From the NCBI GenBank assembly GCA_964571255.1, contig CAZNAA010000001.1:423674-487673 (forward strand): a DNA stretch of 64,000 nucleotides, written 5' to 3'. How positions within the stretch are numbered: position 1 is the stretch's first letter; each line of letters begins with the position of its first letter. This DNA is from an uncultured Gammaproteobacteria bacterium (GTDB lineage Bacteria > Patescibacteriota > Microgenomatia > Levybacterales > UBA12049). The notes beneath the pieces are model-generated. The model was not told the DNA's origin and did no database searches. It saw nothing but the letters and a program-made list of their open reading frames with translations. Below are positions 1,884 through 42,137 of the stretch, piece after piece. The translations under genes were made by a program, and so were the position numbers.

Positions 1884-4735
1884 GAAATTTTAGAAACAGT
1901 AAATGCTTGTCCAATCTCAATTTCATTCACTAAAGCATTTTTCTTGATATATTCTTCAAACCCTACAGGAAGGCTCTCCAGTGAAACATTTACCTTCTCA
2001 TCCATTGTTGTTCCTAAAAGTTTTCTTTCTTCTTGAATCTTACGCACCAAATCTCGTGCCTCTCCTTCTGCAGTAAGTTCAGGAGTGAGAGTAGTGTCAA
2101 ACTCCACTGTTACTGGAACACTTTCTTTTGTTTTTACATAAACAACTTCTTTTACATTTACTTCTTGAGAAAGTACTTCTGTTAATTCTTTACTCAACAT
2201 TGGCTCAGGAAGAGAAACAGTAAGTTTTGCTAGTGGTTGGCGAAGTTTTATTCCTAGCTTTTTTCTCTCTGCATGTGCAATCTCTACTAGTCCTCGGATA
2301 ATTACCATCTCTGTTCTTAAAAACGAGTTCTCTTTTTTTGCTACAGAATCTATTTCCTGGTTTTCTGGCCAATCAGTTAAATGAACTGACTCTTCTCCTG
2401 TAAGATTTTTATAGATTTCTTCACTGAGAAATGGGGTAATTGGAGCCATAAGTTTAGTAATAGTAGTTAGTACTATATAAGTAGTTTCATAGAAACTCTT
2501 TTTATCCTCTTCACTATTCGCACTTGGTCCTACACGATCCCTACTCCTTCTGATATACCAAGTCGAAAGATTTGTAATAAATTCCTCATATGCTTCAATT
2601 GTTGCAATAGTGTCATATCCATCTAAACTCTTGGTTACATCCTGTTTTGTGCGTTCAAGAAGAGTAAGAATCCATTTATCTAGTACATTCTCACTTGACT
2701 TTCCGGTAAGGTGAGATCTATCCCAGTTATCGATAAGAGCATAGGTAACAAAGAAGTTATATACATTCCACAAAATCAACATAGTACTTTTTACTTGATT
2801 TCGGTACTGCTCCTCAGAAATGACTAAATCCTCTCCTTTCATAATTGTTGATCCTAAAAGATATAAACGAAGTGCATCCCCTCCATACTTTTGAATCATT
2901 TCTTTAGGATCAGGATAATTTTTCAAGTTTTTACTCATTTTCCTCCCATCCGTTCCTAAAATGACTCCTTCAACCAGTACATTTTTAAACGCAGGAGATT
3001 CATATAAGGCAGCACCAATGACATGAAGGACATAAAACCAGGCTCTAATCTGACCAGTATATTCTGCAATAAAGTCAGGTGGGAAAAAGTCCTCTAATTT
3101 TTCCTCTGTATTAAATGGATAATGTCTCTCTGCAAATGAAGCACTTCCTGCTTCAATCCAACTATCTAATACCTCTGGAACTCTTTTAGTTTTTTTTCCA
3201 CACGACGTGCAAACTACCTCTACTTCATCGATAAATGGTTTATGCAAATCAGTAATTTCCACTCCACTCGCATCAGATAGCTCTTTTAAAGAGCCTGGAA
3301 CGAACCTCTCTCCACATGCACATTCCCAAACAGGAACTGGAGATCCCCAGTATCTATTTCGAGAGATATTCCAATCAGGAGCATTCTCTAAACTTTTCAG
3401 AAATCTTCCATTTTTAAAATGCTCTGGGAACCAGTGTATCTCCTTATTGGTTTGTTTCATTTTTTCTTTTAAGTCCTGAACATTCACATACCAGGCATTA
3501 ATTGGTGCATAATATAGTCTCGTATGACACCTCCAGCACAGTGGGACATTATGAGGAACTTCTTCATCTTTATAAATAAGTCCCCTCTCAGCTAGGTCTT
3601 CGTTCACTGCCTTATTTGCCTTGAGATAGTACATTCCTCCAAATTTTGGAACATCAGGTTTTATTATTCCTTCCTCATCAACGTGCATCTCAATATGCAC
3701 ATTTAACTCTCTCATCACTTTCAAATCTTCTTCTCCATAGGCTGCAATCGTCACGACTCCTGTTCCTTCCTCAGCTGTTACAAAGTCCCCTGGAATAATT
3801 TCAAATGATTTCTCTCCTTTGGCAATAGCGTAGTAGTCATAATGGGGAACAAACTTTTTTCCAACAAGCTCTGTTCCTTTCATTTTTGCTACCACTTCAT
3901 ACTCACCTACAAGCATTTGTTTTGTCGCCTCAGCAAGGATATAATATTCCTCACCTTGTTTTACTTTGATATATTCTAATGTAGGATTTACCGCTAAAGC
4001 AGGAGTGACAATTTTATTCCAAGGAGTTGTGGACCAGGCGAGAATAAAGGTGTTTTTTTCTCCGACTAATTCATATTTATAGGTTGTGGCACTATCTGGA
4101 ACTTCTTTATAGTTGTCTGCATCCATTGCTACTTCAAAGTTTGAAATCGGAGTACTGCAATGAGGGCAATACAGTGAAACTTTTAGTCCCTTATAGATAT
4201 ATCCCTTCTCATACATCTGCTTAAATATCCACATAACAGACTCCATATAGGGAATATCCCACGTTTTATAGGCATTTTTGAAATCAACCCATCTCCCGAT
4301 ATGATCTACATACCACTCCCACTCTCCTGAAACTTGATTTACATAGTGAAGACAGCGATCAATAAAGGTTTTGACTCCAACTTTTTCCTCAATATCTTTC
4401 TTCCTTTCAATATTCAACTCTCCTTCTACTTTGTTCTCAATCGGAAGACCATGTCCATCCCATCCCCAGACACGTCGTACTCGATATCCTTTCATCGTCC
4501 AATATCTGCCAAAAACATCCTTTGGAAGACTAGAAAGAAGAGTACCATAATGAGGCATTCCGGTAATAAAAGGAGGACCATCTAAAAAGGTCCATTTTTT
4601 TTCCTTTGGACGAAATTCTACGGACTTTTCAAAAATTTTATTCTCTTTCCAGAAAGAAAGGATATTTTCTTCCATTTCTGGAAAGGATGAGCTGAGGCTT
4701 ACAGGTGAAAATGAATTTTTATTTATATTCTTCAT
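1880..4735 (-). CDS. ileS: Isoleucyl-tRNA synthetase, type 2 (eukaryote/archaeal-like)
   Basis: The 951-aa product carries a class I HIGH-type motif (P-H-Y-G-T), a WGWDGHGLP block and the KMSKN(LKN) KMSKS-type motif. Its length and motif variants fit type-2 IleS. Confidence 0.85.
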   Translation of the reverse strand: MKNINKNSFSPVSLSSSFPEMEENILSFWKENKIFEKSVEFRPKEKKWTFLDGPPFITGMPHYGTLLSSLPKDVFGRYWTMKGYRVRRVWGWDGHGLPIENKVEGELNIERKKDIEEKVGVKTFIDRCLHYVNQVSGEWEWYVDHIGRWVDFKNAYKTWDIPYMESVMWIFKQMYEKGYIYKGLKVSLYCPHCSTPISNFEVAMDADNYKEVPDSATTYKYELVGEKNTFILAWSTTPWNKIVTPALAVNPTLEYIKVKQGEEYYILAEATKQMLVGEYEVVAKMKGTELVGKKFVPHYDYYAIAKGEKSFEIIPGDFVTAEEGTGVVTIAAYGEEDLKVMRELNVHIEMHVDEEGIIKPDVPKFGGMYYLKANKAVNEDLAERGLIYKDEEVPHNVPLCWRCHTRLYYAPINAWYVNVQDLKEKMKQTNKEIHWFPEHFKNGRFLKSLENAPDWNISRNRYWGSPVPVWECACGERFVPGSLKELSDASGVEITDLHKPFIDEVEVVCTSCGKKTKRVPEVLDSWIEAGSASFAERHYPFNTEEKLEDFFPPDFIAEYTGQIRAWFYVLHVIGAALYESPAFKNVLVEGVILGTDGRKMSKNLKNYPDPKEMIQKYGGDALRLYLLGSTIMKGEDLVISEEQYRNQVKSTMLILWNVYNFFVTYALIDNWDRSHLTGKSSENVLDKWILTLLERTKQDVTKSLDGYDTIATIEAYEEFITNLSTWYIRRSRDRVGPSANSEEDKKSFYETTYIVLTTITKLMAPITPFLSEEIYKNLTGEESVHLTDWPENQEIDSVAKKENSFLRTEMVIIRGLVEIAHAERKKLGIKLRQPLAKLTVSLPEPMLSKELTEVLSQEVNVKEVVYVKTKESVPVTVEFDTTLTPELTAEGEARDLVRKIQEERKLLGTTMDEKVNVSLESLPVGFEEYIKKNALVNEIEIGQAFTVSKIS

Positions 4736-4789: not shown

Positions 4790-5920
4790 ATGAAGGTCTC
4801 AGATTTATTCAGGCAGATCTTACATAAATATACTACAATACTTTTACTTTCTTCTATGTACGTCTATCGAAAAACTCGGCAAAAAATTAGAAGACTAATC
4901 AAATCCTTCTTGTTTTTAGTTTTTCTAGGATTTATAGGAGTAATGGGATATACTGTATGGAGTTATATCGCATCAACTCTTTTCATCACTCCCCAACAAA
5001 TTGCGATTGAAAATACTCTCCCCTCTCCCTCAACTGTTGATATGAAAAATATTTCTCCAACTCCTACTTCGTATTTGGACAATAATGATGGTCCACTTTC
5101 TCAAATTGTTACCACTGCACTTGATGGATCAAAAGGAGTATACGGGATTATTATCAAAAACTTGAAAACAGGGGAGAAATACTATCAAAATGAAACTAAA
5201 ATCTTTACCTCAGGAAGCCTATATAAGCTATGGGTACTAGGTACTGTCTATAAACAACTTGACGCAAGTATTCTTAAAAAAACAACCGTGATGAAGTCAG
5301 ACGTAGTTGAGCTAACAAAACGGTTTGGCATCACCACAGAGTATGAAGTACAAAAAGAAGGAGACGTAACGTATAGTATTGGACAAGCATTAAATCAAAT
5401 GGTTGTCGTTTCTGATAACTATGCTTCCCTTCTCTTAACAGAAAAAGCAAAAACAACCAATATCCGAAACTTTATGGAAGACAACGGCTTTCACTCTTCC
5501 TCTATCGGCCTAAAAGATGAAGCTCCTTCAACTACTCCTTTAGATATTGCTTCATTTTTTGAAAAACTCTATAACAAAGAGCTCTTTGGAGAGGAGACTA
5601 CTACTGAGATTTTGGATCTGTTAAAACAACAACGATTGAACGGAAAAATTCCTAAATATCTTCCCACAGGTACTCAAGTTGCCCATAAGACAGGAGAGCT
5701 CTATAGTGCTTCACATGACGCAGGAATTATCTATGCACCTGAGGAAGAATATCTTATTGTTCTTCTCTCAGATACTACCTCACAAGTTCAAGCAAATGAA
5801 AGGCTAGCAAGGCTTTCAGAGGCAGTGTATACCTATTTCACCAAAGATGATACACCTATTACAAAAGCTCCAGCCAAAGTAGTAACAAAAATACCTACTC
5901 CTACTCCCGTTGAAGATTAG
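4790..5920 (+). CDS. Class-A beta-lactamase-like serine hydrolase with an N-terminal TM anchor and a Pro/Thr-rich C-terminal tail
   Basis: Three class-A motifs occur in the right order and spacing: S-x-x-K (SGSLYK), SDN (VVVSDNYA) and KTG (HKTGEL). There is an N-terminal hydrophobic segment. The C-terminus is IPTPTPVED. Confidence 0.6.
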   Translation: MKVSDLFRQILHKYTTILLLSSMYVYRKTRQKIRRLIKSFLFLVFLGFIGVMGYTVWSYIASTLFITPQQIAIENTLPSPSTVDMKNISPTPTSYLDNNDGPLSQIVTTALDGSKGVYGIIIKNLKTGEKYYQNETKIFTSGSLYKLWVLGTVYKQLDASILKKTTVMKSDVVELTKRFGITTEYEVQKEGDVTYSIGQALNQMVVVSDNYASLLLTEKAKTTNIRNFMEDNGFHSSSIGLKDEAPSTTPLDIASFFEKLYNKELFGEETTTEILDLLKQQRLNGKIPKYLPTGTQVAHKTGELYSASHDAGIIYAPEEEYLIVLLSDTTSQVQANERLARLSEAVYTYFTKDDTPITKAPAKVVTKIPTPTPVED

Positions 5921-7618: not shown

Positions 7619-8329
7619 ATGGATAAACAGAAAAAGTGGGGTATTATTACTCCGGTTGCTAACGAAGAAGAAATTATTACCAAGTTTGTAAGAGAATTAA
7701 GTAAGGAAGCGGAGAAAATTCCAGGTAAGGTTTCACTCTTTTTTGTTATAGACAAAGTTTCTACAGACAAAACTCTCTCTCTTCTAAAGAAAGAGAGTCA
7801 AAAGAATAAGTTGGTTCATGTAGTATATGAACCCAAAAACAGAAATTTAGTTGATGCATATGTTCGTGGATACAAAGAAGCATTAAATCAAAAATGTGAT
7901 TTTATTATTGAGATAGATTGTGGATTCTCTCATCAGCCAAAAGAAATTCATAAATTTGTTGAAGGATTACTTGAAGGCTATGATTGTGTTTTTGGAACCC
8001 GTCCTCTCTGGTCACCTTTTTACAAAGCACCCTTTATGCGCCGAATTTATAGCTTAGGAGGAACTGTTTTAGCAAACGTACTTCTTGGAACTCGACTAAA
8101 AGATATGACTTCAGGATTTGAAGCTTTTACTGCAAAAGCACTCAAAAGCATTATAGCTAAGCCTCTTAAATCCACGGGACATTTTTTCCAAACCGAAATT
8201 CGTTTCCGAGCACGTAAGCTGCACTTGAAACAAGTATGGATCAATTATAATTTTACAGGCACCAGCCTTAACAAAAGCAGTCTAGAGAACTCCTTCACTA
8301 CTCTCTTTTCTCTCATGAAAGAGCGATAA
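7619..8329 (+). CDS. GT2-family glycosyltransferase (DPM1-like, soluble)
   Basis: N-terminal GT-A signature (ITPVANEEE...VIDKVSTD) and a DxD-like EIDCGFSH region. At 236 aa it has no TM segments. Confidence 0.6.
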   Translation: MDKQKKWGIITPVANEEEIITKFVRELSKEAEKIPGKVSLFFVIDKVSTDKTLSLLKKESQKNKLVHVVYEPKNRNLVDAYVRGYKEALNQKCDFIIEIDCGFSHQPKEIHKFVEGLLEGYDCVFGTRPLWSPFYKAPFMRRIYSLGGTVLANVLLGTRLKDMTSGFEAFTAKALKSIIAKPLKSTGHFFQTEIRFRARKLHLKQVWINYNFTGTSLNKSSLENSFTTLFSLMKER

Positions 8330-11193: not shown

Positions 11194-11409
11194 TTATTGC
11201 TTAATTCTTGCAAGATACCCTGTCTTTTTAATTATTCCAACTATCTGTTCTAAATTAATTTTCTTTTCGTCAAATTCAACATCTGTCTCTTGTTTGGCAT
11301 AATTAGTATTTGATTCGATAACCCCCTCTGTATCTTCAAGTTCGCCATCAATATTCATGGCACAATTTGTGCAGTGCATTCCCTCAATTTTCAACGTTAC
11401 TTTCTTCAT
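11194..11409 (-). CDS. copZ: Copper chaperone CopZ (HMA domain)
   Basis: The 71-aa product carries the GMHCTNCA (M-x-C-x-x-C) motif in a ferredoxin-like HMA fold. Confidence 0.8.
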   Translation of the reverse strand: MKKVTLKIEGMHCTNCAMNIDGELEDTEGVIESNTNYAKQETDVEFDEKKINLEQIVGIIKKTGYLARIKQ

Positions 11410-12545
11410 ATTACATTTATCATCCCTCGATACATTCCCATGCTACACATAAAGGGGATTTGTGTTGGTTTATCAGGCATCTTGAGTGTAACGGTTTCTG
11501 TCTCTCCTTCTTGAACAACTTTTTGATAATTAAAAGCTGGAATAGTAAATGCGGAGGCACACGTGTACACCCCATCATTTCTTATCTCAAATGATACATT
11601 TGTTCCAACTTTTACGGTCACTATGTTTGGACTGTAACCACCTTCTAGTATATTAATCACAACATTCTCTTGAGGGGCACTATTTTTAGATTTGTTTTCT
11701 AAATTAGAATTTTGGCCAGATAGAGTATCAATTGTCCATAAACTTCCACTCAATGCAAGTACGTTGTTTAAATTAAATACGGCAAGAATAATAATGGCAA
11801 ATGCTGCTACCTTCATAAATTTTTGACGCAACGATTCACCCAATCTACTTGTAAAGTATCCAAGAATAAAAAACAATGGAGAAGTTCCAAGCACAAAAGC
11901 AAATAAGATTGCAGATCCCAAAAATGGATTTGCTGAACCTATGGCAAGAGCCATCATTGCCTGGGTAACACCACATGGAATAAACACCGTGAATGCACCA
12001 AGTAATGCTGGTGCGAATAAACTTTTACTTTTTGATTGATTTCTCACAATACGTGTTAGTGATTTTGGTGGTTGAATGATAAAGTATCTAAAAATTGGGT
12101 GAATATTAAGAATACTCAATGCTGTCCCTACCATAAAGATAACTACGACTAATTGCATCACAATTTGTGTGCGTAGTGATAATTGAAAAAGGGAGCCAAA
12201 AAAACCAAGAAGAAAACCAAGAATAGTATAGGCAATTAGTTTTGAAATAAGAAACGATAAAATTGGAAGCACATTGCCAGATTGGTTTGTTTTCTCCTTT
12301 AATGTATCTTCTTGTCGTTGGGCTAAAGTTGCGGCAAGTAATCCTCCTTGGATTGCTAAACAACTTAAGCCCCCAGTCAAAAGACCAGTTATAAAAACCG
12401 CCCACAAGTTAATATGTTGATCTGTAACACTTGAAACATTTGGATTCTCGAGTGAGTAAATTTTTAGCAAAAGAAAACCAATAAGAATAATAGCACCAAG
12501 ACACGCAGAAATCAATAATGTTTGTTTTTTAATCCTAATCTCCAT
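11406..12545 (-). CDS. Polytopic permease (DsbD_2/CcdA-like topology) fused to a C-terminal cupredoxin-like metal-binding domain
   Basis: The ~280-aa N-terminus has 7-8 TM segments with Cys-containing TMs (GGLSCLAIQGG and FIPCGVTQA). The C-terminal ~100 aa (EGGYSPNIVTVKVGTNVSFEIRNDG...CASAF...FMCSMGMYRGMINV) is paralogous to ORF 14822-15187. It overlaps copZ by 4 nt. Confidence 0.5.
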   Translation of the reverse strand: MEIRIKKQTLLISACLGAIILIGFLLLKIYSLENPNVSSVTDQHINLWAVFITGLLTGGLSCLAIQGGLLAATLAQRQEDTLKEKTNQSGNVLPILSFLISKLIAYTILGFLLGFFGSLFQLSLRTQIVMQLVVVIFMVGTALSILNIHPIFRYFIIQPPKSLTRIVRNQSKSKSLFAPALLGAFTVFIPCGVTQAMMALAIGSANPFLGSAILFAFVLGTSPLFFILGYFTSRLGESLRQKFMKVAAFAIIILAVFNLNNVLALSGSLWTIDTLSGQNSNLENKSKNSAPQENVVINILEGGYSPNIVTVKVGTNVSFEIRNDGVYTCASAFTIPAFNYQKVVQEGETETVTLKMPDKPTQIPFMCSMGMYRGMINVI

Positions 12546-12594
12546 ATTCTTTTTTCTTTAATACTCCTTATTAATTAAGTTCTTTGAACCATAT

Positions 12595-14832
12595 TCATTC
12601 TATTCTAACTCTTTTTAGTAAGAGTGAGTTAGAGACTACTGAGATTGACGATAGTGTCATAGCAACTGATGCAAAAATTGGGTTTAACAACAAACCAATG
12701 AATGGATAAAGGATACCCGTAGCTACTGGGATAAGTATTACATTATATCCAAATGCCCAGAATAAATTCATCCGTATTGTTCTCATAGTTTTTTGGGATA
12801 AATCAATTGCAGAAGAGACAGCTTGCAAATCTTTATTCACAAGAATGATGTCTGCTGCTTCGATTGCAACATCTGTTCCCGAACCCATCGCAATTCCAAC
12901 GTCTGCTGCTGCAAGTGCAGGGGCATCATTTATTCCATCGCCAACCATTGCTACAACTTTTCCTTCAGATTTAATCTTTTGTATTTCTATTTCTTTTTCG
13001 TGTGGTAAAACTTCTGCAAGAACTTGTTTTATACCTAGTTTTTGAGCAATTGAGTTTGCAGTTCTTTGATTGTCGCCAGTAATCATCACTACTTCAATAC
13101 CTTTCTTTTGTAACGCATGTACGCCTTCTTTGGCAGATGGTTTTATCGTATCTGCAACAGCAATAAATCCAGCAAGCGTCCCATCAACAGCAAGCATCAT
13201 AACTGTTTTACCTTCACTTTCTAATTTTTCTAACTGAGCTGAAACATTGCTGAAAGAAATCTTTTCTTTCTCTATGTGCTTTCTATTTCCTAGAAGAACT
13301 TTTTTACTCCCTATCATTCCGACAACTCCATGTCCTGCAATAGCTTGAAAGTTGGAGACAGAATCAAGTGTGATTTTCTCATCATCTGCTTTCTTCACGA
13401 TGGATTCTGCTAATGAGTGTTCTGATCCCTTTTCTACAGATGCAGCAAGTCTTAATACCTCGTCTTTCTTATAGTCATTTAGAGAGATAATATCTATTAT
13501 TTCAGGTTTTCCATTAGTTAATGTTCCCGTCTTATCAAAAACTATCGTTTTTATCTTATTTGCTAACTCCAGACTCTGTGCATCCTTAATTAAGATCCCC
13601 TTTTCAGCACCTAAACCTGTTCCCACCATAATTGCAGTAGGTGTTGCAAGTCCCATTGCACAAGGACAAGCAATGATGAGAACTCCAACAGTATTTAGCA
13701 TGGCATACAAAAACGCAGGACTTGCACCGAAAACATACCAAATACCAAACGTTGCAAAAGCAAGCATAATAACAACGGGAACAAAGTAAGAAGAAACTGC
13801 ATCAGCAAGTCGTTGAATCGGTGCCTTACTGCCCTGAGCATCTTGCACGAGTTTGATTATTTGAGCAAGCATTGTCTCAGAGCCAACCCTCATTGCTTTA
13901 TAAGTAAAAGTACCAGCTTTGTTCATCGTAGAACCAATAACCATGTCACCTTTTGCCTTTTCAACTGGGATACTTTCCCCACTAATCATAGACTCATCAA
14001 GTGCTGATTCTCCATTTATTATTTGCCCATCAACTGGTATTTTTTCACCTGGTCTTACTCGAATAATATCTCCTACTTTTACTTGCTCAATTGGAATATC
14101 AAATTCTTTTCCGTCTCTTACAACTCGAGCTGTTTTTGCTTGGAGTTCAACAAGTTTTTTAATTGCCCCAGAAGTTCCTGCTTTCGCTTTTGCTTCAAAA
14201 TATCTCCCAAGTAAAATTAACCCAATAACAATTGTTGCCACGTCAAAATAGGGCATTATTTCAACACCTAATCCCATAAAAACTGTAGGAAAAACAGTAA
14301 CAAAAGCAGAGTAAAAAAAGGCAACAGTTGTTCCTAAAGCAACAAGAGTATCCATATTGGAAGTTCTCTGTTTAAGAGCTGCAATAGCAGTTTTATAAAA
14401 CTCAGAACCTGCCCAAAATTGAACAGGTGTGGCTAAAAATAGTTGTATCCAAAAATTCTGTAAAAATGTTGGAGCAGTAGTCATTACTCCAGGAAAACTT
14501 CCCCAAAGAATTAACCCACCAAGGACTAAGCTAGTAATAACTTTGTTGCGTAGTACTTGGAGCTCTTTTTTCTTCTCTCCTTCTGCGACTTCTTCACTCT
14601 TTTCTTCAAGTTCAAGTGTATAACCCGTCTTGGCAACAGAATCAGCTAATTGCTCTTGTGTACAAGTATCCGTATCAAAGGTAACAGTTGCTTTCTCAGT
14701 TGCAAGATTGACAACAGCGTCTTTAACACCTAATACTTTTTTTAACGCCCGCTCAGTTACTCTTACACAAGACGCACAGTGCATGCCAGTAAGTCGAAAT
14801 GATTGTTTTACCTCAGTCATATTATTCAACAA
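12595..14832 (-). CDS. copA: Copper-translocating P1B-type ATPase
   Basis: N-terminal HMA motif (GMHCASCV), CPC metal site in the TM region ([13 protein letters not shown]), phosphorylation site DKTGTLT and hinge [10 protein letters not shown]. Length 745 aa. Confidence 0.9.
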
Positions 14833-15187
14833 TTATTTTTCCATGAAACATATTCATTCCACAGGACATTTCATATGTTCCGTTCTTCTTGGGTGTAATT
14901 TGAATAGATGTGGTTTTATTCAGAGGTAAATGTCTTCTAATCTTAAACTCAGGAAGGACAACTTCTTCCAAACAAGAGCTTTGGTCATGGCGTATGAAAT
15001 TTATTGTTGTAGTTTTACCTTTTGGGATAGAAATGACGTTGGGAGAATATCCACCTTCCACAGTAATATCTACACTGTTGGCCATTACTACTACGGTTGC
15101 ATCGTCTTTCTTCATCAAGAAAAACCAGTAGGTAAATCCTATTCCTCCTATACTAAATGCTGCAACAAGTAATTCATCAATTCCCAT
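14822..15187 (-). CDS. Small membrane-anchored cupredoxin-like (Cys/Met/His) metal-binding protein
   Basis: 121-aa product with an N-terminal TM segment. The domain [29 protein letters not shown]...[17 protein letters not shown] is paralogous to the C-terminus of 11406-12545. It overlaps the copA start by 11 nt. Confidence 0.5.
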
Positions 15188-15236
15188 ACGTTATCACCTT
15201 AGAAGAAGTGCATTTTTTGCACCTCTCCCAAAAAGA

Positions 15237-15899
15237 TTACTGAGAATACCCCCAGTCTATATACCATTGCCTCATCTGGTCAATCTCATTTGTCTGAGCA
15301 GTTATTATGTTATCAGCAAGCTTTTCCATTTCAGATCGCTGAGTTCCTCCTTTAAGCATATTTGCCATCATTACAGCCATTTGATGATGTGGAATCATTC
15401 CCTCAATGAATGCTTTATCAAAATCCTTTGCATTTTCAAGACTTGTCATATCTGTATCATTACCCATCATCCCCATGTGCATACTATTTCCTGTTTTCAT
15501 TCCGTGCTGATTCATAATAGTACTCCCTTCAGGAACGTCTTTTCCAAACCAAGATGTATACCAATCTTTCATTTGATTAATTTCCCTCCCCTGAGAAGTA
15601 ATAATATTTTCTGCTAACAACTTTATTTCAGGTTTTTGTGCTTTAGTTTGAGCAAGTTTTGCCATAGTGATTGCATCTTCGTGATGTGGAATCATTTGTT
15701 CTATAAAATGTGCATCAATTGAATCAGAATTTCGGATATTACTTGGCTGGGTTCCATTTCTATACCCCATCATTCCCATCATCGCAAAATTATTCGAGTT
15801 AAAAATATTTATAGAGATAAACCATATAAGCAACCCTCCAATAAATATTCCTCCCACTCCATATTTCAGATTATTGTCCATATTTTCACCTCCCTTCAT
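15237..15899 (-). CDS. Membrane-anchored protein with two DUF305 (HH-motif four-helix) repeats
   Basis: An N-terminal TM segment is followed by the repeat motifs FIEQMIPHHEDAITMA and FIEGMIPHHQMAVMMA. Such domains commonly sit in copper-resistance loci. Confidence 0.6.
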   Translation of the reverse strand: MKGGENMDNNLKYGVGGIFIGGLLIWFISINIFNSNNFAMMGMMGYRNGTQPSNIRNSDSIDAHFIEQMIPHHEDAITMAKLAQTKAQKPEIKLLAENIITSQGREINQMKDWYTSWFGKDVPEGSTIMNQHGMKTGNSMHMGMMGNDTDMTSLENAKDFDKAFIEGMIPHHQMAVMMANMLKGGTQRSEMEKLADNIITAQTNEIDQMRQWYIDWGYSQ

Positions 15900-16171
15900 T
15901 ATGATTTCTTTTTAAACACTTCCATTATTTCAGCAATTGATTTATCAGCTTCACCATTCTTAATTGCATCAGCAACACACCCTTTCAGATGGTTTTCAAG
16001 AAGGAGATTTCCTGTTTCTTTCAGTCCACTCTCAATAGCCTGCATTTGATGCAATACGTCAATACAATACGCATCTGTCTCAATCATTTTAATAACTTTA
16101 TCAAGGTGTCCTCTTGCTATCTTTAGTCGGTGAGTAATTCGTTCCTGAGTATCTTTTGGTCTATATGCCAT
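15899..16171 (-). CDS. csoR: CsoR/RcnR-family copper-sensing repressor; ATG at 16171 preferred over the track's TTG at 16219
   Basis: The core ITHRLKIARGHLDKVIKMIE...YCIDVLHQ...C shows C-H-C ligand spacing. The track's codon 1 is TTG (read from the sequence). An in-frame ATG at 16169-16171 (MAYRPK...) is preceded by GGGGGA and by the operator palindrome. Confidence 0.7.
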   Translation of the reverse strand: MAYRPKDTQERITHRLKIARGHLDKVIKMIETDAYCIDVLHQMQAIESGLKETGNLLLENHLKGCVADAIKNGEADKSIAEIMEVFKKKS

Positions 16172-16193
16172 ATATCCCCCTAGTAGGGATATA
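16171..16193. promoter_or_regulatory. Putative CsoR operator: TATATCCC-N7-GGGATATA inverted repeat
   Basis: 8-bp perfect inverted repeat with a 7-nt spacer, read directly. It is a G/C-tract pseudo-palindrome like known CsoR operators and sits immediately 5' of the csoR ATG at the head of the cop operon. Confidence 0.4.
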
Positions 16194-16286
16194 CTATCCG
16201 TTAACAAGTGAGATGTCAATCTGACAACTATCTAAAGAAAACTTGAGATAATTGATGAAAAATCGGAGTTGAGGATTAATTAGAAG

Positions 16287-17420
16287 CTAATTCTTCTGTC
16301 TTAGAAAGGCGGGGATATCCCATTCATCTTCTTCTTTTTCAACAGGCTTCTCATTGCTGTTATTCTGAGGAATAGATGGTTGGGATTGTGGTTGGGACTG
16401 AGGACGTTCATCTTCATCAGATACTTCATATCGACGATTTGGCATAAAGTTACTAAGCGTTTGTTTCGTTGAGTCAAAGCCTGTTGCAACTACCGTAATT
16501 CGCATTTGATCAGTCATACTTTCATCAATTGCTGCTCCAAAAATAATGTTGGCATCTGGATCTGCAGCCGCACGAATAATCTTGGCTGCTTCATCGACCT
16601 CAGTCATGGTGAGATCAGAATCTCCTACGATATTAAAGAGAACTCCTCGTGCTCCCTCCATGGAGACTTCAAGAAGCGGGCTAGAAATTGCCATTCGTGC
16701 AGCAGCTTGGGCTCGTCCTTCTCCTTTTCCTGTTCCAATACCCATAAGAGCACTTCCTGCATTTACCATAATGGTTCGAACGTCAGCAAAGTCGATATTG
16801 ATAAGACCAGGAAGCGTAATGATTTCAGAAATTCCTTGAACTCCTTGGTTCAGTACAGAATCTGCTACTTTAAAAGCATCAACAAGTGAGAGTTTTCGAT
16901 CTACTACTTCAAGAATTCGTTGATTGGGGATAACAATAAGGGTATCTACTTTATCTCGAACACTCTCGATCCCCTCCTCTGCAGCAACCATTCTTCGAGT
17001 TCCTTCAAAAGCAAATGGTTTAGTAACAACAGCAACAGTTAAGGCTCCTACTTCTTTAGCAATCTGAGCAACGACAGGAATAGCACCTGTTCCTGTTCCT
17101 CCACCCATTCCAGCTGTAAGAAAGACCATGTCTGATCCTTCAAGCATGTGTTTAATTTTTTCTGCAGATTCCTCAGCTGCAATTCGCCCTACTTCTGGAT
17201 CTCCTCCTGAACCAAGACCGCGAGTATAATTTTCACCTATTTGGAGTTTTGTATCTGCTTTATTTCGAAGAAGGGCTTGAGCATCGGTATTTACAGCAAC
17301 AAAGTCTACACCTTGAATTGCATTACTGCTAATCATGGAGTTAACTGCATTTCCTCCGCCACCACCAATACCAAGTACTCGAATTTTGGCAAAATTAGTA
17401 GCCTGAGGCTTTATCAGCAT
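16287..17420 (-). CDS. ftsZ: Cell division GTPase FtsZ
   Basis: Tubulin signature GGGTGTG, N-terminal [15 protein letters not shown], and a conserved C-terminal DIPAFLR peptide. Confidence 0.95.
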
Positions 17421-17576
17421 AATGGGTCAATCCTATCAGATAAAAATAGCATTTGCAAGGATATAGGATGGAATTAATGAGGAGTAATTATCTTTCGCTC
17501 TGAAAACAAATATTTTATTTTCAAGGCGAAAGAGAGAGATTGGGTTGATAGCTATGATGTTCTCTTTCGCGTCCGC

Positions 17577-17972
17577 TTAGCGGACTGACTCCACTGTGTA
17601 GTGGAGCTTATAATCCGAAGTGATATGTACCACAAGGAAAAGCTTGCCGGTGCCGTCGAGTAGGTAAATGGGATAAGAGGTGCGATGCTTATCGGGCACC
17701 GCTCCAGCATAATACCAAACACCATTCCGCCCGGCCGTGTAGTGCCGGACTTCGAGCCAGCACACGCTGCTGCGAGAGAACTGAACTAGGGTGACGTACC
17801 CCCCGAGAGGGGCTGCCTCATCTCCGAACAGTTGCTTTTCGTAGTTGTTCTGCCCTGATGGGCATGACTCGCTGAGTGCGACTGGCGTGATGGTCGGAGT
17901 GATCACCAGAATCGACAGAATCGACAGAATCACCGGTAATCGGTTAGCCTGGTTGCCATTCCGTTGCTGCAT
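17577..17972 (-). CDS. Small secreted protein (signal peptide plus ~100-aa two-Cys domain) encoded on a GC-rich insert
   Basis: 131-aa ORF with canonical SD AAGGAGG 5 nt upstream of the ATG. The N-terminus (RLPVILSILSILVITPTITPVALS-ES) is signal-peptide-like. Local G+C is much higher than the flanks. Confidence 0.45.
   Translation of the reverse strand: MQQRNGNQANRLPVILSILSILVITPTITPVALSESCPSGQNNYEKQLFGDEAAPLGGYVTLVQFSRSSVCWLEVRHYTAGRNGVWYYAGAVPDKHRTSYPIYLLDGTGKLFLVVHITSDYKLHYTVESVR
17907..17933. repeat. 9-bp tandem direct repeat (cagaatcga x2 plus cagaatcac)
   Basis: Read directly from the sequence. It encodes the ILSILSIL core of the signal peptide on the minus strand. Confidence 0.6.
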
Positions 17973-18221
17973 CTGATCCTCCTTTGAGAACTTTTTGCCA
18001 TCTGCCCCGTTTGGCAGTCAGCAAAACGGCCCCATTCTAAAGATACTATGTATCTTCACAATAGAACCGTCTTATCAACTACTACTTGGTGGCTTTTGGC
18101 CCAATCTCTCTATTAATGTGCAGATTCTATTCGTAAGTGAAACTAAATAGCCTCAAAAACAAACAAAAATCGTAAGGTGATCCTAGCACAAAAAAAGGAA
18201 ATGTCAATACTATAGGTTTAT

Positions 18222-19541
18222 TTAGGGGATAAAAGACTTGAGGAGGGCAAAGATTTTCTTCATAAATTTACCTCCATCTCCTCCTCCAGGAAGCTTAGGC
18301 ATAGAGAAGCCAAATGGCAGACTCGATTTTTCACTACCTCCAGTTGTTGCTCCGTATTGAGCAAGGCCAATTACTGTTGAAAAGGCAGGGTGCTGTACTT
18401 CATCAGTTATTCCTTTAACATTTGATGGGTATCCTATCCTAACTGGCATAGCCATTGTGCGTCTCGCTGCATCCTTAATACCAACAGTCATTGCCCCTCC
18501 TCCAGTAATGACAACTCCAGCTGGTATTTGCCCGCCAAATCCACTCTTTTTCAACTCTAGCCCAACCATGGTAAAGATTTCATTGAGTCGAGGCCTAATA
18601 ATACCTTCAACAAGAGTTTTTTGAGATACTTTTCGAAGTTCTTCTGGAAGCCCAAGAGTTGTAAGATCCAAATCATCAGATGGTCTTTCTCTTTTCTTCT
18701 CCTCAACCACTTCCTCCTCATCAGGTCTGGTTACTAGCTTTTTTCGAGCTTCATGGGAAAGATAGAGCTTAATTTTCTCTGCACTCTCTAGCGAGATCCT
18801 AAGCCCAATAGCTAAATCATTGGTAATGTGTCTGGCACCAATGGCAAGAACTGATGAATAAGAGATTGACCCTTCCGTATAAATAGCAATATCTGTTGTC
18901 CCAGCTCCAATATCAACTAATACCACTCCTAATTCCTTCTCCGTATCAGAAAGAGTTGCAAGGGATGAGGCAAACCCACTAAAAACAAAGTTATCCACGT
19001 CTACCCCAACTTGTGAGAAAGCTTTATCTAAATTTCGAACTGAGATACTGTTAGCACTAATGATATGCGTATCGACCTCTAAGCGGACTCCAGACATGCC
19101 AATAGGATCTTTTATTCCTTCTTGTCCATCTACGACATAATTACGAGGTAAAACGTGAATAATGTCCCGTGTGGAGGGCATAGAGATGGCTTTTGCTGCA
19201 TCAATTACTCGAACTAAATCACTCTCTCCTATTTCTCCTTGTGGAGTAGAAATTGCTACAACACCCCTGGAGTTTTGACTTTCAATTTGAGATCCACCAA
19301 TGGAGGCAACAATATGTGAGGCAGAATAACCTGCCATACGCTCAGCAGCTTCAAGAGAGGTATTAATACTTCCAACCGCTTCTTCAATATCAACTACTTG
19401 CCCTTTTCTAATTCCTCCAGATTTACCTTCAGATACGCCTAAAACGTTGACAATATCATCAGTTACTTTGGCTATGACAGTAACAACTTTATAAGTACCT
19501 ACATCAATCGCAACAACAATTTTTCCCTCATTCATATGCAT
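18222..19541 (-). CDS. ftsA: Cell division protein FtsA (actin-like ATPase)
   Basis: N-terminal IVVAIDVGTYKV (phosphate-1), DIGAGTTDIAIY (phosphate-2), 439 aa, positioned beside ftsZ. Confidence 0.9.
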   Translation of the reverse strand: MHMNEGKIVVAIDVGTYKVVTVIAKVTDDIVNVLGVSEGKSGGIRKGQVVDIEEAVGSINTSLEAAERMAGYSASHIVASIGGSQIESQNSRGVVAISTPQGEIGESDLVRVIDAAKAISMPSTRDIIHVLPRNYVVDGQEGIKDPIGMSGVRLEVDTHIISANSISVRNLDKAFSQVGVDVDNFVFSGFASSLATLSDTEKELGVVLVDIGAGTTDIAIYTEGSISYSSVLAIGARHITNDLAIGLRISLESAEKIKLYLSHEARKKLVTRPDEEEVVEEKKRERPSDDLDLTTLGLPEELRKVSQKTLVEGIIRPRLNEIFTMVGLELKKSGFGGQIPAGVVITGGGAMTVGIKDAARRTMAMPVRIGYPSNVKGITDEVQHPAFSTVIGLAQYGATTGGSEKSSLPFGFSMPKLPGGGDGGKFMKKIFALLKSFIP

Positions 19542-19993
19542 TATTTAAAAACCACTACTGGCTTATCAAATCGAAGATCCAGTCTTCCGACCTTCTTTCC
19601 TTCCATTGTAAGCTGTGAAAAGATCTGTTGTAAAGAGGAGATCTGTTTGGAATAATTCTTTTCCTCTAAAACAAGTTCTTCCCCTGTTTGGAGTCTTACT
19701 AGATACGCTGAATTTGACGCTTGAGAAATAGAATCTACCGTATACCCTTCTCTTTCCAGAAGAACAGTAATATTTTCTTCCTGTCCTTTCTCTTTATTTT
19801 CAATTTGAGAAGAAAGTGGATTAATAAGAGGGGACTTATGAGAAAGAACCATTTTCATTACTAAAAAATACCCAATGATAAATGGCAAGAGAAGAAAAAG
19901 AATGTTTACTCTTCGTGGTTTGTCAGACGCTAAGCGTCTTTTTTTGCGTAACATCATTAATGACTGAGAGAATCTGTTCTGTAGCCTTCTCAT
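19541..19993 (-). CDS. FtsQ/DivIB-like small division protein (basic N-terminus, one TM, short POTRA-like region)
   Basis: Its position between murG and ftsA and its topology support the call. At 150 aa it is shorter than canonical FtsQ. It overlaps the murG 3' end, so the start may instead be at the MML codons near 19957. Confidence 0.4.
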   Translation of the reverse strand: MRRLQNRFSQSLMMLRKKRRLASDKPRRVNILFLLLPFIIGYFLVMKMVLSHKSPLINPLSSQIENKEKGQEENITVLLEREGYTVDSISQASNSAYLVRLQTGEELVLEEKNYSKQISSLQQIFSQLTMEGKKVGRLDLRFDKPVVVFK

Positions 19994-34199: not shown

Positions 34200-34814
34200 A
34201 TGGAACAATTTTTAGGTAGATTTGATCACGTTCCAAATGCACCCCGTTTTGACCAAGTCGTTTCCTATCATGAAATAATCGTCGCTGGTTTAATGAATGC
34301 TGAAGTCACTCTAAACAAGGAGATTAATAATCTAGCTCAGTGTTATGACGAGTTAGTAGGTTCTGGAATCGTTACTGTTGTTGCCCCTTATCTTTCTGAA
34401 CTATCGAAATTTGGTATTTCATTAAACGCTGCGACACGTCATCTTAAAGATATACAGTTTAATCCTTTTATTGCCCGTAAAGTATATGGTCAAGGAGAAG
34501 TAGTTGAAACTTTTGTAGTTCTTCCACAAGGACTCCCCGAGATGGTAAAAGTATCCCCTATCCAAGTGTTAGGAAACTTTACGAGAATGATGAGTAGACT
34601 TAAAGATAGCTTCTCTGAATATTCTAAGAGGGAAAAACGCTTAAATATATATATTCAACATATGCGTAATAGAGAAGAAGCTTATGAGAGTGAATTAATT
34701 AACACTTTCAGAGTAGATCCTAGTGATCTAACTCCAAAACAACGTGCAACTTTAAACTATTACCCTACTGGACTTTATGGGTTACATCCAGGAATTCGCT
34801 ATCCTGGAAGATAG
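34200..34814 (+). CDS. Hypothetical protein
   Basis: 204-aa ORF with a real ATG and no recognisable family. It is divergent from glyS. Confidence 0.3.
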   Translation: MEQFLGRFDHVPNAPRFDQVVSYHEIIVAGLMNAEVTLNKEINNLAQCYDELVGSGIVTVVAPYLSELSKFGISLNAATRHLKDIQFNPFIARKVYGQGEVVETFVVLPQGLPEMVKVSPIQVLGNFTRMMSRLKDSFSEYSKREKRLNIYIQHMRNREEAYESELINTFRVDPSDLTPKQRATLNYYPTGLYGLHPGIRYPGR

Positions 34815-39089: not shown

Positions 39090-40171
39090 ATATGTTTTTT
39101 TACTAAATTTTCAACTGTTGTTTTAAACTCTTCAAGAAATCTTCTTTCACTAAACTTTTCTGCATTCTTTTCTAACACTTTTGGATCATAAGTGAAAGTA
39201 TCGAATTTCTTAAGCGCATCAACTAAGCACGAAACCGTTTGCTTATCAAAAAACATTCCTGTTTTCCCTTCAACAATAGTTTCCAATGCTCCTCCTCCTC
39301 TGAAAGCTAAGACAGGTTTTCCAAGAAGCTGTGCTTCAAGGATGGTTATACCAAAATCTTCACTCCCCGGGAAAAGAAATCCCTTGCACTGTCTATAGTA
39401 CCCAACTACCTCTTCATCAGTCAAGTTACCTAGAAATTCTATGGTAGGTCCACTCATCCCTTTTAGCCTCTTTTCATCACTCCCACTTCCAATTATCTTT
39501 AAAGAAAATCCTAATTTATTGCACGCTTTTATAGCTAAATCGACCCGTTTATACGGAACAAGACGAGAAACAATTAGGTAATAGCCTTTTTCTTGAGGAA
39601 GAGGTGAGAGAGCACTCTTTGGTAATTCTACTGGTGGATAGATTAAAAGAGAATCTTGGTTGTAATACTCTTTTATTCTTTTCTGGACTTCTTTAGAAAT
39701 AGCAATATAAGAATGTGGCCTCGTCGAGGCAATCTTATCCCACCAACGCAAATAAGACACTGCTGGACTAAGAAGCATCCTTACTACTTTTTTGGGGAAG
39801 TATTCTTCATACCCACTCCATAAATATCTTGTTGGGGTAAGACAATAACAGAGATGGATGGTATTGGGCTTTGTAAGAATTCCTTTCCCTGCTTCACTCG
39901 TAATTGAAATAACAACATCATACTCATCAAAAGAAAAACTTTCAAAGACAATTGGCATAAGAGGAGCAAGTTTCTCATGAGAAGTTTTGGTGAAAGGAAG
40001 TTTTTGCAAAAAAGATGGAAAAACGATAAATACGTTGGCCCACGAAGCACTTTGGGGATTATACACTGAGGTAAAAAGAGGAGCATCAGGAAAAAGTTTA
40101 TGAAGGGAAAGCAGGACCCTTTCAGCCCCTCCGAATTTATTTACCCTATCATAGACTAGCGCAACTTTCAT
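39086..40171 (-). CDS. GT4-family glycosyltransferase
   Basis: GT-B fold with C-terminal EDFGITILEAQLLGKPVLAFRGGGALE (E-x7-E region). Confidence 0.7.
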   Translation of the reverse strand: MKVALVYDRVNKFGGAERVLLSLHKLFPDAPLFTSVYNPQSASWANVFIVFPSFLQKLPFTKTSHEKLAPLMPIVFESFSFDEYDVVISITSEAGKGILTKPNTIHLCYCLTPTRYLWSGYEEYFPKKVVRMLLSPAVSYLRWWDKIASTRPHSYIAISKEVQKRIKEYYNQDSLLIYPPVELPKSALSPLPQEKGYYLIVSRLVPYKRVDLAIKACNKLGFSLKIIGSGSDEKRLKGMSGPTIEFLGNLTDEEVVGYYRQCKGFLFPGSEDFGITILEAQLLGKPVLAFRGGGALETIVEGKTGMFFDKQTVSCLVDALKKFDTFTYDPKVLEKNAEKFSERRFLEEFKTTVENLVKKHI

Positions 40172-41261
40172 ATGCTTCTTTTGTCAAACGTGCCATCTCC
40201 TTCCAAGAAAAAAGAGAAAGTCTTTTCTTTCCTTTCTCTTTATAGTTATTTTTTTCTTTAGAAGAAAGTGAGTTCCATTCTAGCATAGTCTTAGTTATTT
40301 CTTTCGGATTATTCGGTTCAAAATACAGTGCTCCGTCCGCAATTACTTCTTTAAAGGCAGTAATATGTGAAAGCAAAGGAACTGTTCCATTCGCAATAGC
40401 TTCAAGTGGAGGAAGACCAAAACCTTCTTGAATAGATGAAGAGATATAGGCATCAGCACTTTTATACAAAGAAGATAGATCTGTATCAGTTACTTCATGG
40501 AGAAAATGAATATCTTTTCTTTTGTACTGAGATTCTTTTTGAAGTTGGGTATAGAAAAAATCTTCCTTCCCAACGAGTACTAAAGAGTTTTTTCCTTTTT
40601 GCTTTTTATATTGGAGAAATGCTTCTAAAAGAGTTTCTAAATTTTTATGTGGATACGCATTTCCCACATATAAGAAAAAAGAGCCATATTTACTTATTTT
40701 TTCCTGGCCCTTCGTAACAGAGAAGTCCACACCTTCTTTAGTCACTATAATTTTTTCGTTTTTTAAGGAAAAAGTATTTACAAGATCATCTTTTACACAC
40801 TGAAGTGGAACAAGTATTTTTTCAGATCTTTTCAAACCATGTCTTAATACTCTACCAAAGAAGAATCTTTTCACCTTATACATGGGAAGGGGAAGAGTTG
40901 AAGCTTTTCCTGTATCAAAATGATGAATAATCAAATCGTGGATGGTTATAATAAAAGGTTTGCGATACAAAACAGGAAGTGAAAAATAAGGAAAGTGCAT
41001 AATATCAAGTGGATGAAGATACAGATCATTGAGAAACTGCGTTTGTTCAGAAAGTGAGTGCCAGTGAGATGAAACAGGAATGACTCTCCATTTGTGTTTC
41101 CGAGAGGTTATGACTTTCTCAATTGCTTCTTTGTCTTTTGGAAGAGAAAAAAGGTAATATTCATTTTCTAAATCAATTCGAGTTAATTCTGTAATTAAAT
41201 TTCGAATATATCTTCCAACCCCCGTCTCACTCCATAACCTAGTATCAATTCCAATTTTCAT
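40149..41261 (-). CDS. GT4-family glycosyltransferase
   Basis: N-terminal KIGIDTRLWSETGVGRY, C-terminal QEGFGLPPLEAIANGTVP. Confidence 0.7.
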   Translation of the reverse strand: MKIGIDTRLWSETGVGRYIRNLITELTRIDLENEYYLFSLPKDKEAIEKVITSRKHKWRVIPVSSHWHSLSEQTQFLNDLYLHPLDIMHFPYFSLPVLYRKPFIITIHDLIIHHFDTGKASTLPLPMYKVKRFFFGRVLRHGLKRSEKILVPLQCVKDDLVNTFSLKNEKIIVTKEGVDFSVTKGQEKISKYGSFFLYVGNAYPHKNLETLLEAFLQYKKQKGKNSLVLVGKEDFFYTQLQKESQYKRKDIHFLHEVTDTDLSSLYKSADAYISSSIQEGFGLPPLEAIANGTVPLLSHITAFKEVIADGALYFEPNNPKEITKTMLEWNSLSSKEKNNYKEKGKKRLSLFSWKEMARLTKEAYESCASL

Positions 41262-41300: not shown

Positions 41301-42137
41301 ATGTCAGGTCGTCAAGAAGTTTTTTCCGATCAAGATATTACTGATACCATTAATGGTATCGCTGATTGGCTTCGTAATCCAAAAGAGTATGATGCTAAAA
41401 AAGATAAAGAGGAAGCAATACGAGTTGCACAAGAATTAATAATACCTCATCCAATATCTCCAGATATTGTTAACTGTTTGGATTTATCAGCTGCAAACTT
41501 TACTCACTTACTTGAGGGACTTCTACCACCTAACGAGATAGCAAAGGAGACAAGAAGAAGCCTTGAGCTTGTTGTTGTATCTCCTCTGTTCTCTTATATA
41601 ATTACAGAACTAATAAAATATAACGGAAAAATCCGCAAATACATCCCTGCAGATGAACTCCAAAGACGCGTCCTACAAGAATGCCTAGACCATATCCAGT
41701 TACTATTAGGAAAAGTAGGGAAAGGCGTAAAAGAGATAGAGGCAAGATCAGGTCTTCCTGTTCCTATACCACTTTTACAGGTCTCTCTAGTAAGCCCCAA
41801 TATAAGTGTTTCCCAACGATATATAGCCACAACTACAGGAAGTGGAGATTTAAAAGGAACACAATTTACTGCTATCCACACATTAGCAGCAAGAACAGCT
41901 ATTCTCCCTCTCTTAGGATTTGAGCTGGACCAAAATAACCAACTCCTGCAGCAGCCAGCTGATATGAAAAATTTAGTAGGGAGAGGACGTCAAGTAGAAA
42001 CAGTTTATGTAAGTAACAAAATTCCTACTATCTCTTTTCGAACTTCTAGAAGTTATGTGGGGATCAAAGAAGTTCCTTCTCAACTATGTAGTATCAATGA
42101 ACGACTAACTTTTATTCCTCCACCTTTTACCGCTTAG
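41301..42137 (+). CDS. Hypothetical protein (only plus-strand gene inside the minus-strand glycan cluster)
   Basis: 278-aa ORF with no TM segment or signal peptide and no recognisable motifs. Confidence 0.3.
   Translation: MSGRQEVFSDQDITDTINGIADWLRNPKEYDAKKDKEEAIRVAQELIIPHPISPDIVNCLDLSAANFTHLLEGLLPPNEIAKETRRSLELVVVSPLFSYIITELIKYNGKIRKYIPADELQRRVLQECLDHIQLLLGKVGKGVKEIEARSGLPVPIPLLQVSLVSPNISVSQRYIATTTGSGDLKGTQFTAIHTLAARTAILPLLGFELDQNNQLLQQPADMKNLVGRGRQVETVYVSNKIPTISFRTSRSYVGIKEVPSQLCSINERLTFIPPPFTA

Follow-up and report, generated by a model that had tools for sequence, protein, structure and literature searches.

Why does a GC-rich gene stand between ftsA and ftsZ in an AT-rich bacterial genome? 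The adjacency of these two genes is very widely conserved, and the genomes of the candidate phyla radiation (CPR), to which the host belongs, are small and streamlined. The stretch of DNA that we analysed (the window) is 64 kb long, has a mean G+C content (GC) of 35.9%, and is assigned by its FtsZ to Candidatus Levybacteria (CPR/Patescibacteria). On its minus strand, ftsA (18222-19541, with Pfam domains FtsA and SHS2_FTSA) and ftsZ (16287-17420, with Tubulin and FtsZ_C) are separated by an open reading frame (ORF) of 131 amino acids (aa) at 17577-17972, which an initial annotation described as a foreign cargo gene in a GC-rich insert at 17555-18065. We find that the ORF belongs to an inserted module of 728 nt (17494-18221, minus strand, GC 0.473), that only the central part of this module is foreign in composition, and that this part has been replaced between two closely related strains. 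The reading that best accounts for the module is an exchangeable cassette for a polymorphic exported beta protein with two cysteines, which belongs to an orphan family of three members.

The inserted module and its GC-rich core

The module begins directly after the ftsA stop codon, at 18221. Three contigs of a sister lineage (L091, L092 and L093; ~89% nucleotide identity) show this site without an insert, with 78 nt between ftsA and ftsZ. The BLAST homology of the window to these contigs ends at 18223 and picks up again at 17493, and therefore the true insert is 17494-18221. We also compared the 17 next-closest genomes with ftsA and ftsZ both on the fetched contig, whose FtsZ proteins are 62-79% identical to that of the window (79% for the best species-representative match). 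All 17 have short ftsA-ftsZ spacers of low GC, 38-213 nt in length (tblastn gaps of 41-245 nt). Neither the sister lineage nor any of the more distant relatives examined has the module, and in all of them the two genes are adjacent without an insert. The initial annotation had proposed this comparison. It had also raised the possibility of an assembly chimera. Both junctions are 100% identical in contigs assembled independently from four Sequence Read Archive (SRA) runs (SRR8893622, SRR8893623, SRR8893624 and SRR8893625), and two assemblies from the European Nucleotide Archive (ENA), L085 and L086, have the same junctions with another allele. The module is a true insertion and not an assembly chimera.

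The GC jump reported between ftsZ and ftsA is present in windowed GC, and its two hand counts (36/60 and 19/60) are exact. In 200-nt windows, GC is 0.54-0.60 between the two genes, with a peak of 0.595 at 17700-17899 against the window mean of 0.359. In 400-nt windows, the ORF region stands 5.4 standard deviations over the mean, and it is the sole region above 0.47 in the 64 kb. The island is real, while the proposed borders match neither the inserted DNA nor its GC-rich part, which is 17572-17982 (minus strand, GC 0.550). This core consists of a Shine-Dalgarno (SD) sequence, the ORF and a hairpin at the stop codon. It is embedded in two arms of host-like composition, a 5' arm at 17983-18221 and a 3' arm at 17494-17571, each with a GC of 0.372. 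The codon usage of the ORF sets the core apart from the 57 other genes of the window, with a GC at third codon positions (GC3) of 0.64 versus 0.254 +/- 0.031. The SD sequence AAGGAGG (17978-17984, minus strand), 5 nt upstream of the ATG, is as described and is the only 7-nt match among the 58 ORFs examined. The flanking genes of the division and cell wall (dcw) cluster have no match of at least 5 nt, and the next-longest matches in the window are one 6-nt AGGTGA and two 5-nt AGGAG. The empty site, the spacers of the relatives and the GC3 difference bear out the claim that a foreign cargo gene was acquired horizontally. The claim holds for the ORF core; it had missed the AT-rich, host-like arms with a promoter-like site of their own, and the replacement of the core between strains.

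The product of the core ORF has a hydrophobic N-terminal segment, a signal or an anchor, followed by a ~100-aa two-Cys domain predicted to be all beta. The hydrophobic segment includes a 9-bp tandem repeat of 2.8 copies (17907-17931, minus strand; Tandem Repeats Finder) that encodes ILSILSIL, a repeat noticed earlier. The initial annotation recognised no family for this protein, and a word-seeded search of 5.8 billion clusters finds no match except the protein itself. Exhaustive HMMER searching of 1.84 billion representatives does find two distant homologues, P0002 (170 aa, 52% identical, E 7e-28) and P0004 (142 aa, 34% identical, E 1.5e-6); the three remaining matches are repeat proteins and look spurious. 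A profile search of the 5.8 billion clusters adds no members to these three proteins, each of which is a singleton cluster. All three have a common layout of N-terminal hydrophobic segment, Thr/Pro-rich linker and ~100-aa domain, and their alignment has both Cys and 28 columns invariant. By eye, the hydrophobic stretches are LPVILSILSILVI (window), ALCIAILALVTATV (P0002) and AAIMVLVLIAFVGW (P0004), from which we predict that the protein is exported or membrane-anchored. Amongst the three members, pairwise dS (synonymous divergence) is saturated (at least 1.7), dN (nonsynonymous divergence) is 0.50-0.78 and dN/dS is 0.23-0.44; the protein is therefore under purifying selection. GC3 is also high in the homologues (0.69 and 0.66), and two of the alleles have a strong SD sequence at the correct spacing, the third a weaker one. 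These features of the sequences show that the ORF is a real protein-coding gene. The AlphaFold2 model is all-beta with seven strands and a predicted local distance difference test score (pLDDT) of ~80 in the domain. There is no significant fold or sequence match in the PDB, and no match in Pfam, NCBIfam, PHROG or PADLOC.

Core replacement, a second locus and the conserved arms

The contigs L085 and L086, from two ENA samples, represent another strain, whose ftsA, ftsZ and module arms are 94-96% identical to those of the window. Across 17982-17572 there is zero nucleotide similarity between the window and this strain, which carries P0004 there. The break in similarity coincides exactly with the break in composition. 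Mismatches to this strain number 11/239 and 1/78 in the two arms, 24/572 in ftsA and 17/280 in ftsZ. As the densities in the arms match those in the two genes, the module entered once, before the two strains diverged, and later only its core was replaced. Divergence of the core in situ is excluded by the saturated dS. Between strains ~95% identical, and with sharp borders, the core has been replaced by an allele whose protein is 34% identical. The ENA sample ERZ15185638 holds both L085 and the empty-site contig L091, so that populations with and without the module coexist in one metagenome.

The third allele is found at a different locus. In the contig L084, from another Logan sample, P0002 is encoded beside a gene for an FtsJ-like methyltransferase and not beside ftsA or ftsZ. 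The neighbouring gene of this copy is found on one contig only. The L084 copy is 76% identical to the window in the leader and 78% in the trailer (both described below), it forms a GC island (0.56-0.63) within a contig of ~42% GC, and it is flanked by an exact 11-nt direct repeat, ATGTAATTTCA, as found in 2 of 2000 shuffles. A homologous module at a second locus indicates that the unit is mobile between loci and genomes. The 64-kb window holds no further copies.

The arms carry most of the recognisable signals. In the 5' arm, a promoter-like site, P1 (18180-18207, minus strand), has a TTGACA hexamer, a 16-nt spacer and TG-n-TAGGAT, with 10/12 consensus matches in addition to the TG extension. 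Its extended -10 element is the same as in Levybacteria ftsZ promoters, and P1 is a candidate for an active promoter of the module. The module has two invariant blocks, TTAATAGAGAGATTGGGCCAAAAGCC and ATCAACCCAATCTCTCTCTTTCGC. The 5' block of 26 nt (18091-18116, minus strand) is identical in the window, L085 and L084, and the 3' block of 24 nt is at 17526-17549 (minus strand). Between P1 and the SD sequence is a structured leader of ~125 nt (17986-18110, minus strand), for which the RNAalifold consensus fold is a long rod of 47 pairs; 93.6% of cells are paired, and in 6 of the pairs both sides have changed. Only 7-8 of 500 shuffles equal this fold, and slid controls have at most 52% paired; the covariation supports the fold. 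Within the leader, hairpin 1 (18026-18070, minus strand) is followed by UUUU, and hairpin 2 (17993-18026, minus strand) is part of the rod. The core is bordered by two hexamers in inverted orientation, GTTCTC and GAGAAC.

The palindrome GTCCGCT-T-AGCGGAC noted earlier over the stop codon is real. It forms a hairpin at 17571-17585 (minus strand), GTCCGC-TAA-GCGGAC, with the stop codon in its loop. The hairpin is kept in all three alleles with a different sequence (GTCCGC-TAG-GCGGAC in L084, CGCGGT-AACA-ACCGCG in L085). Downstream, a conserved trailer (17526-17570, minus strand), which includes the 3' invariant block, has a 10-bp stem, GCGAAAGAGA / TCTCTTTCGC, round a 25-nt loop. The CTTTCGC/GCGAAAG inverted repeats reported on the left flank are likewise present. 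A longer-range inverted repeat with a 14/15 match spans the core, with a left arm at 18100-18114 (5' box AATAGAGAGATTGGG) and a right arm at 17530-17544 (3' box CCCAATCTCTCTCTT). Each of its arms lies within one perfectly conserved block common to L084. Thermodynamic folding of the full-length RNA predicts a panhandle for all three alleles. For the window and L085 alleles, the two boxes are predicted to pair with P ~1.0, while in L084 the predicted partner of the 5' box is a second CU-box that lies more distally. At the insertion border there is a terminal AT-rich hairpin (17491-17533, minus strand), an inverted repeat with 20-nt arms, 85% complementary and without a U-tract, which is possibly a terminator or an insulator. 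Amongst the hairpins of the module, only hairpin 1 in the leader has a U-tract. The window has no Rfam match at gathering thresholds, only chance-level matches with E of at least 0.2, and no transfer RNA (tRNA) or transfer-messenger RNA (tmRNA) was found in the search.

Origin of the module and alternative explanations

The module is probably a horizontally acquired, autonomous expression cassette, similar to a phage moron, in which recombination at or within the conserved arms exchanges the core. A series of events consistent with the data would be as follows. The module went in directly behind the stop codon of ftsA. The ancestral promoter of ftsZ, P2 (17430-17458, minus strand; TTGCAA-N17-TAGGAT-N9-ATG), thereby stayed downstream of it; P2 is outside the module, is intact, and has the same sequence in the window, in L085 and in the empty-site contig L091. 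The entry was a single one, into an ancestor shared by the window strain and the L085 strain. The arms would supply P1, the structured leader and the trailer hairpins, with a 5' GA-box and a 3' CU-box able to pair as a panhandle. The core supplies the strong SD sequence, the ORF and the stop-codon hairpin, and its product would be an exported or membrane-anchored two-Cys beta-sheet protein. The later swap of the core alone for a deeply divergent allele would have proceeded via recombination at or within the arms. Related modules with a third allele sit elsewhere in other genomes. The insertion would be tolerated because P2 keeps ftsZ expressed from its own promoter, and the ftsA-ftsZ junction can then serve as an insertion hotspot, provided that promoter stays intact. 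Exposure of the core protein at the cell surface, and diversifying or balancing selection acting on it, are plausible elements of the same account. The arrangement has two layers, with host-like structured arms kept across loci and genomes, and a GC-rich, SD-bearing core in an AT-rich genome with nearly no SD sequences. A swapped core between conserved arms is the signature of an exchangeable surface-protein cassette, and such a cassette may be relevant to the way in which episymbiotic CPR cells change the surface that they present to hosts or phages.

Several observations weigh against this account. No recombinase that could account for the insertion or for the core swap was found in the window. 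A scan of the module for consensus intrinsic terminators finds no canonical one. The family has three members in all amongst ~15 billion proteins, which makes any generalisation weak, and the database and fold searches reported above give no match to indicate a function. The most serious difficulty is one of composition. The GC3 of the core stays high in all three alleles despite the saturated dS and the AT-rich genomes. A history shared by arms and core predicts that the core drifts towards host GC, which is not seen, so simple homologous exchange among copies resident in CPR genomes fails to explain the composition. One possibility is a repeated supply of cores from a GC-rich pool that has escaped sampling, though those ~15 billion proteins include no such homologue; the other is that the GC of the cores is kept by selection or biased conversion. 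The puzzle is either an unsampled GC-rich gene pool with a capture mechanism, or an unusual selection on base composition. We give a small probability to a view in which the arms, with promoter, structured leader and panhandle-forming trailer, are a resident docking platform in CPR genomes that captures or exchanges GC-rich promoterless ORF cassettes, each with an SD sequence and a stop-codon hairpin of its own, and which is neither an integron, an insertion sequence nor a phage integrase system. If true, it would be a minimal new cassette-exchange system giving polymorphic surface proteins to ultra-small episymbiotic bacteria, with DNA possibly drawn from a GC-richer partner organism.

The module resembles a moron, a mobile insertion cassette and a variable surface locus, and it is a member of none of these classes. 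According to the moron criteria of Hendrix and colleagues, as summarised in PMC2920897, the likeness is that the module is an extra transcription unit between two genes adjacent in relatives (L091-L093 and the 17 more distant genomes), that it carries a promoter-like signal of its own (P1, a match to the promoter consensus), that its composition differs (core GC 0.55 and GC3 0.64 versus 0.36 and 0.25 in the host), though its arms are host-like, and that the same kind of unit occurs in more than one genomic context, with different versions at one hotspot. Unlike a moron, the module resides in the chromosomal dcw cluster of a CPR bacterium, with a copper-resistance cluster nearby, and not in a phage or prophage; it has no canonical terminator; and it has conserved structured arms, with the core alone compositionally foreign.

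Polymorphic surface-antigen loci such as Borrelia ospC and the capsule and O-antigen loci swap by recombination in conserved flanks, and fungal mating-type idiomorphs are a formal analogue. The module shares with them deeply divergent alleles at one locus of genomes that are nearly identical elsewhere, sharp borders at conserved flanks, atypical composition and a product predicted to be exported. It differs in that the locus is a recent insertion also found elsewhere, and in that only three alleles are known.

We weighed five other explanations. A non-autonomous transposable element, that is, a mobile insertion cassette (MIC) or an ORF-carrying miniature inverted-repeat transposable element (MITE) with the boxes as terminal inverted repeats and a transposase encoded elsewhere, is unlikely although it has several facts in its favour. 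MICs are a documented class (PMC4337579, PMC5444012), and like them the module is small (~0.6-0.75 kb), has no transposase, and has its passenger gene, together with leader and trailer, bracketed by the 14/15 inverted repeat, both arms of which are inside the perfectly conserved blocks common to L084. The 11-mer of the boxes occurs amongst 87 loci only in copies of the element, as inverted pairs, save for one chance case in L087. The module occurs at two different loci, and one copy, that in L084, has an exact 11-nt direct repeat round it. The inverted repeats, however, do not define the insertion borders, as they should in a MITE: in the window they lie inside by 107 nt on the left and 36 nt on the right, and the L084 direct repeat stands 5-11 nt and 24 nt off them. 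The inverted repeat alone is not significant, since 43 of 300 shuffles yield a comparable one; the window copy has no clear target duplication, only degenerate candidates of 10/12 or 10/11; the 64 kb hold neither a cognate insertion sequence with its transposase nor a second copy; and transposition leaves the replacement of the core between unchanged arms unexplained. An integron-like capture platform, in which the AT-rich arms are a docking site with a promoter and GC-rich cassettes come from an outside pool via a site-specific recombinase still to be found, would account for this replacement and for the exact coincidence of composition break and swap break. In its terms, what varies is an ORF that lacks a promoter, brings a ribosome-binding site of its own and ends in a 3' hairpin overlapping the stop codon; this hairpin is conserved in structure and not in sequence. 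The unit has a resident promoter upstream, inverted GTTCTC/GAGAAC hexamers on either side, and an atypical GC (GC3 of 0.64-0.69 in all alleles, despite saturated dS and arms 76-78% identical). We regard such a platform as quite improbable, given that the window has no integrase or recombinase (neither IntI nor attI), that there is no GC-rich genome with the core protein family amongst ~15 billion proteins, that each site has one cassette, and that the three cargos all belong to one protein family, unlike those of an open capture system. In integrons, attC sites are 57-141 nt long and have R''/L''/L'/R' boxes. The module has no attC of proper size or boxes; its stop-codon hairpin is 15-16 nt, and RYYYAAC/GTTRRRY boxes are not seen by eye near it.

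The three remaining explanations are much less probable. An ancestral dcw gene, inherited vertically and lost in relatives, is suggested by two strains ~95% identical that share the module at the same site, and is very hard to reconcile with the 78-nt spacer that the sister lineage has intact, with 17 more distant relatives in which the site is also empty, with the foreign codon usage and SD sequence, and with the homologous module at an unrelated locus. GC-rich islands in AT-rich genomes are often RNAs, and an island whose GC results from the structure of a non-coding RNA, with the ORF there by chance, would agree with fold z-scores of -3.8 and -3.3 on the two strands and with a leader that is truly structured. 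We find this highly improbable, as the GC-rich part is conserved at the protein and not the nucleotide level, with dN/dS below 1, GC3 > GC1 > GC2 and SD sequences in all three alleles (strong at correct spacing in two), and as it has no Rfam family and no tRNA. An artefact of assembly or binning that joins foreign GC-rich DNA to a Levybacteria contig, the possibility brought up by the sharp composition change in a metagenome-assembled genome, has a vanishing probability in view of the identical junctions in assemblies of four SRA runs, the two ENA assemblies in which a different allele has the same junctions, and the host-like arms adjoining both junctions.

Neither a vehicle nor a donor was found. 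In agreement with the initial annotation, Pfam finds no transposase, integrase or recombinase domain in the 57 other ORFs of the window, where only RecO is present. The 64 kb contain no phage genes and no PHROG match, tblastn and distant blastn searches of phage and plasmid collections find nothing, and neither do IMG/VR scans for the two end motifs, for a leader motif and for the protein profile. The donor suggested earlier, a higher-GC neighbour or host, was not identified: the only homologues also sit in lower-GC (~42% GC) contigs, and amongst ~15 billion proteins there is no GC-rich genome carrying the family. We rejected two candidate origins. The invariant 5' 20-mer has a lone match in a metagenome of the Joint Genome Institute (JGI), in L087, ~160 nt upstream of an IS200 tnpA, which suggested an origin from an IS200/IS605 element (palindrome-associated transposable element, PATE). 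By comparison with three other copies, the left end of this IS200 is at 2564, and the 20-mer, at 2499-2518, is 45 nt outside it; one match is the chance expectation. A duplication of the ftsZ promoter as target duplication was suggested by P1 and P2, which are ~68% identical over 38 nt by hand alignment, mostly in the promoter hexamers; the empty site rules it out, as P2 alone is ancestral and P1 is inside the insert. The IS200-type element itself, present at 2564-3198 of L087 and in L088-L090, encodes a Y1 transposase (PF01797), begins with TAACCCGACCGCTAAGCC at its left end, which is conserved, and has hairpins at both ends. Its copies are 82-93% identical across the four metagenome contigs, are often found among other transposase genes, and are unrelated to the cassette.

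Genome setting

In the window, ftsA and ftsZ close a canonical dcw cluster, in which Pfam identifies mraZ and rsmH followed by ftsI, the mur genes, mraY, ftsW and murG, and then ftsA. In the position of ftsQ, between murG and ftsA, there is a 150-aa ORF (19541-19993) without Pfam match. In its listed form it shares 71 nt with murG; in the sister lineage a 138-aa product is called there. The ftsZ promoter motif, cTTGCAA-N17-TGCTAGGAT, is kept ~9-12 nt 5' of the ATG in several close Levybacteria relatives (L004-L008). The position of this motif in P2 would imply a leaderless or near-leaderless ftsZ transcript, separate from that of ftsA. The genes of the window are nearly all without an SD sequence, and many have a TATAAT-like -10 box that ends 6-12 nt before the start codon. 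Examples of this short spacing are found upstream of 389-784, 7619-8329, 34200-34814, 40149-41261, 41301-42137 and 16287-17420 (ftsZ), and they suggest that leaderless mRNAs may be widespread in the host genome. One relative, L020, has a 213-nt ftsA-ftsZ spacer (3846-4061) of low GC and rich in GGTACC/GATAC direct and inverted repeats, which is unrelated to the cassette.

Directly downstream of ftsZ is a copper-handling cluster (11406-16219) that is also kept in the sister lineage (L091). It encodes a CsoR-type repressor, a DUF305 protein, a cupredoxin, a P-type ATPase with an HMA domain, and a DsbD-like/cupredoxin fusion. On the opposite strand, a 376-aa protein with a Beta-lactamase2 (class A-like) domain is encoded at 4790-5920 (plus strand), adjoining a gene for an isoleucyl/valyl-type tRNA synthetase. 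A ~29-kb cluster at 35367-63969 (minus strand) includes glycosyltransferases, a sugar transferase, a 1005-aa Wzy_C protein, an acyltransferase and a DegT aminotransferase, and is probably a surface-polysaccharide locus. It also includes several large ORFs (661, 726, 438 and 357 aa) without a Pfam match.

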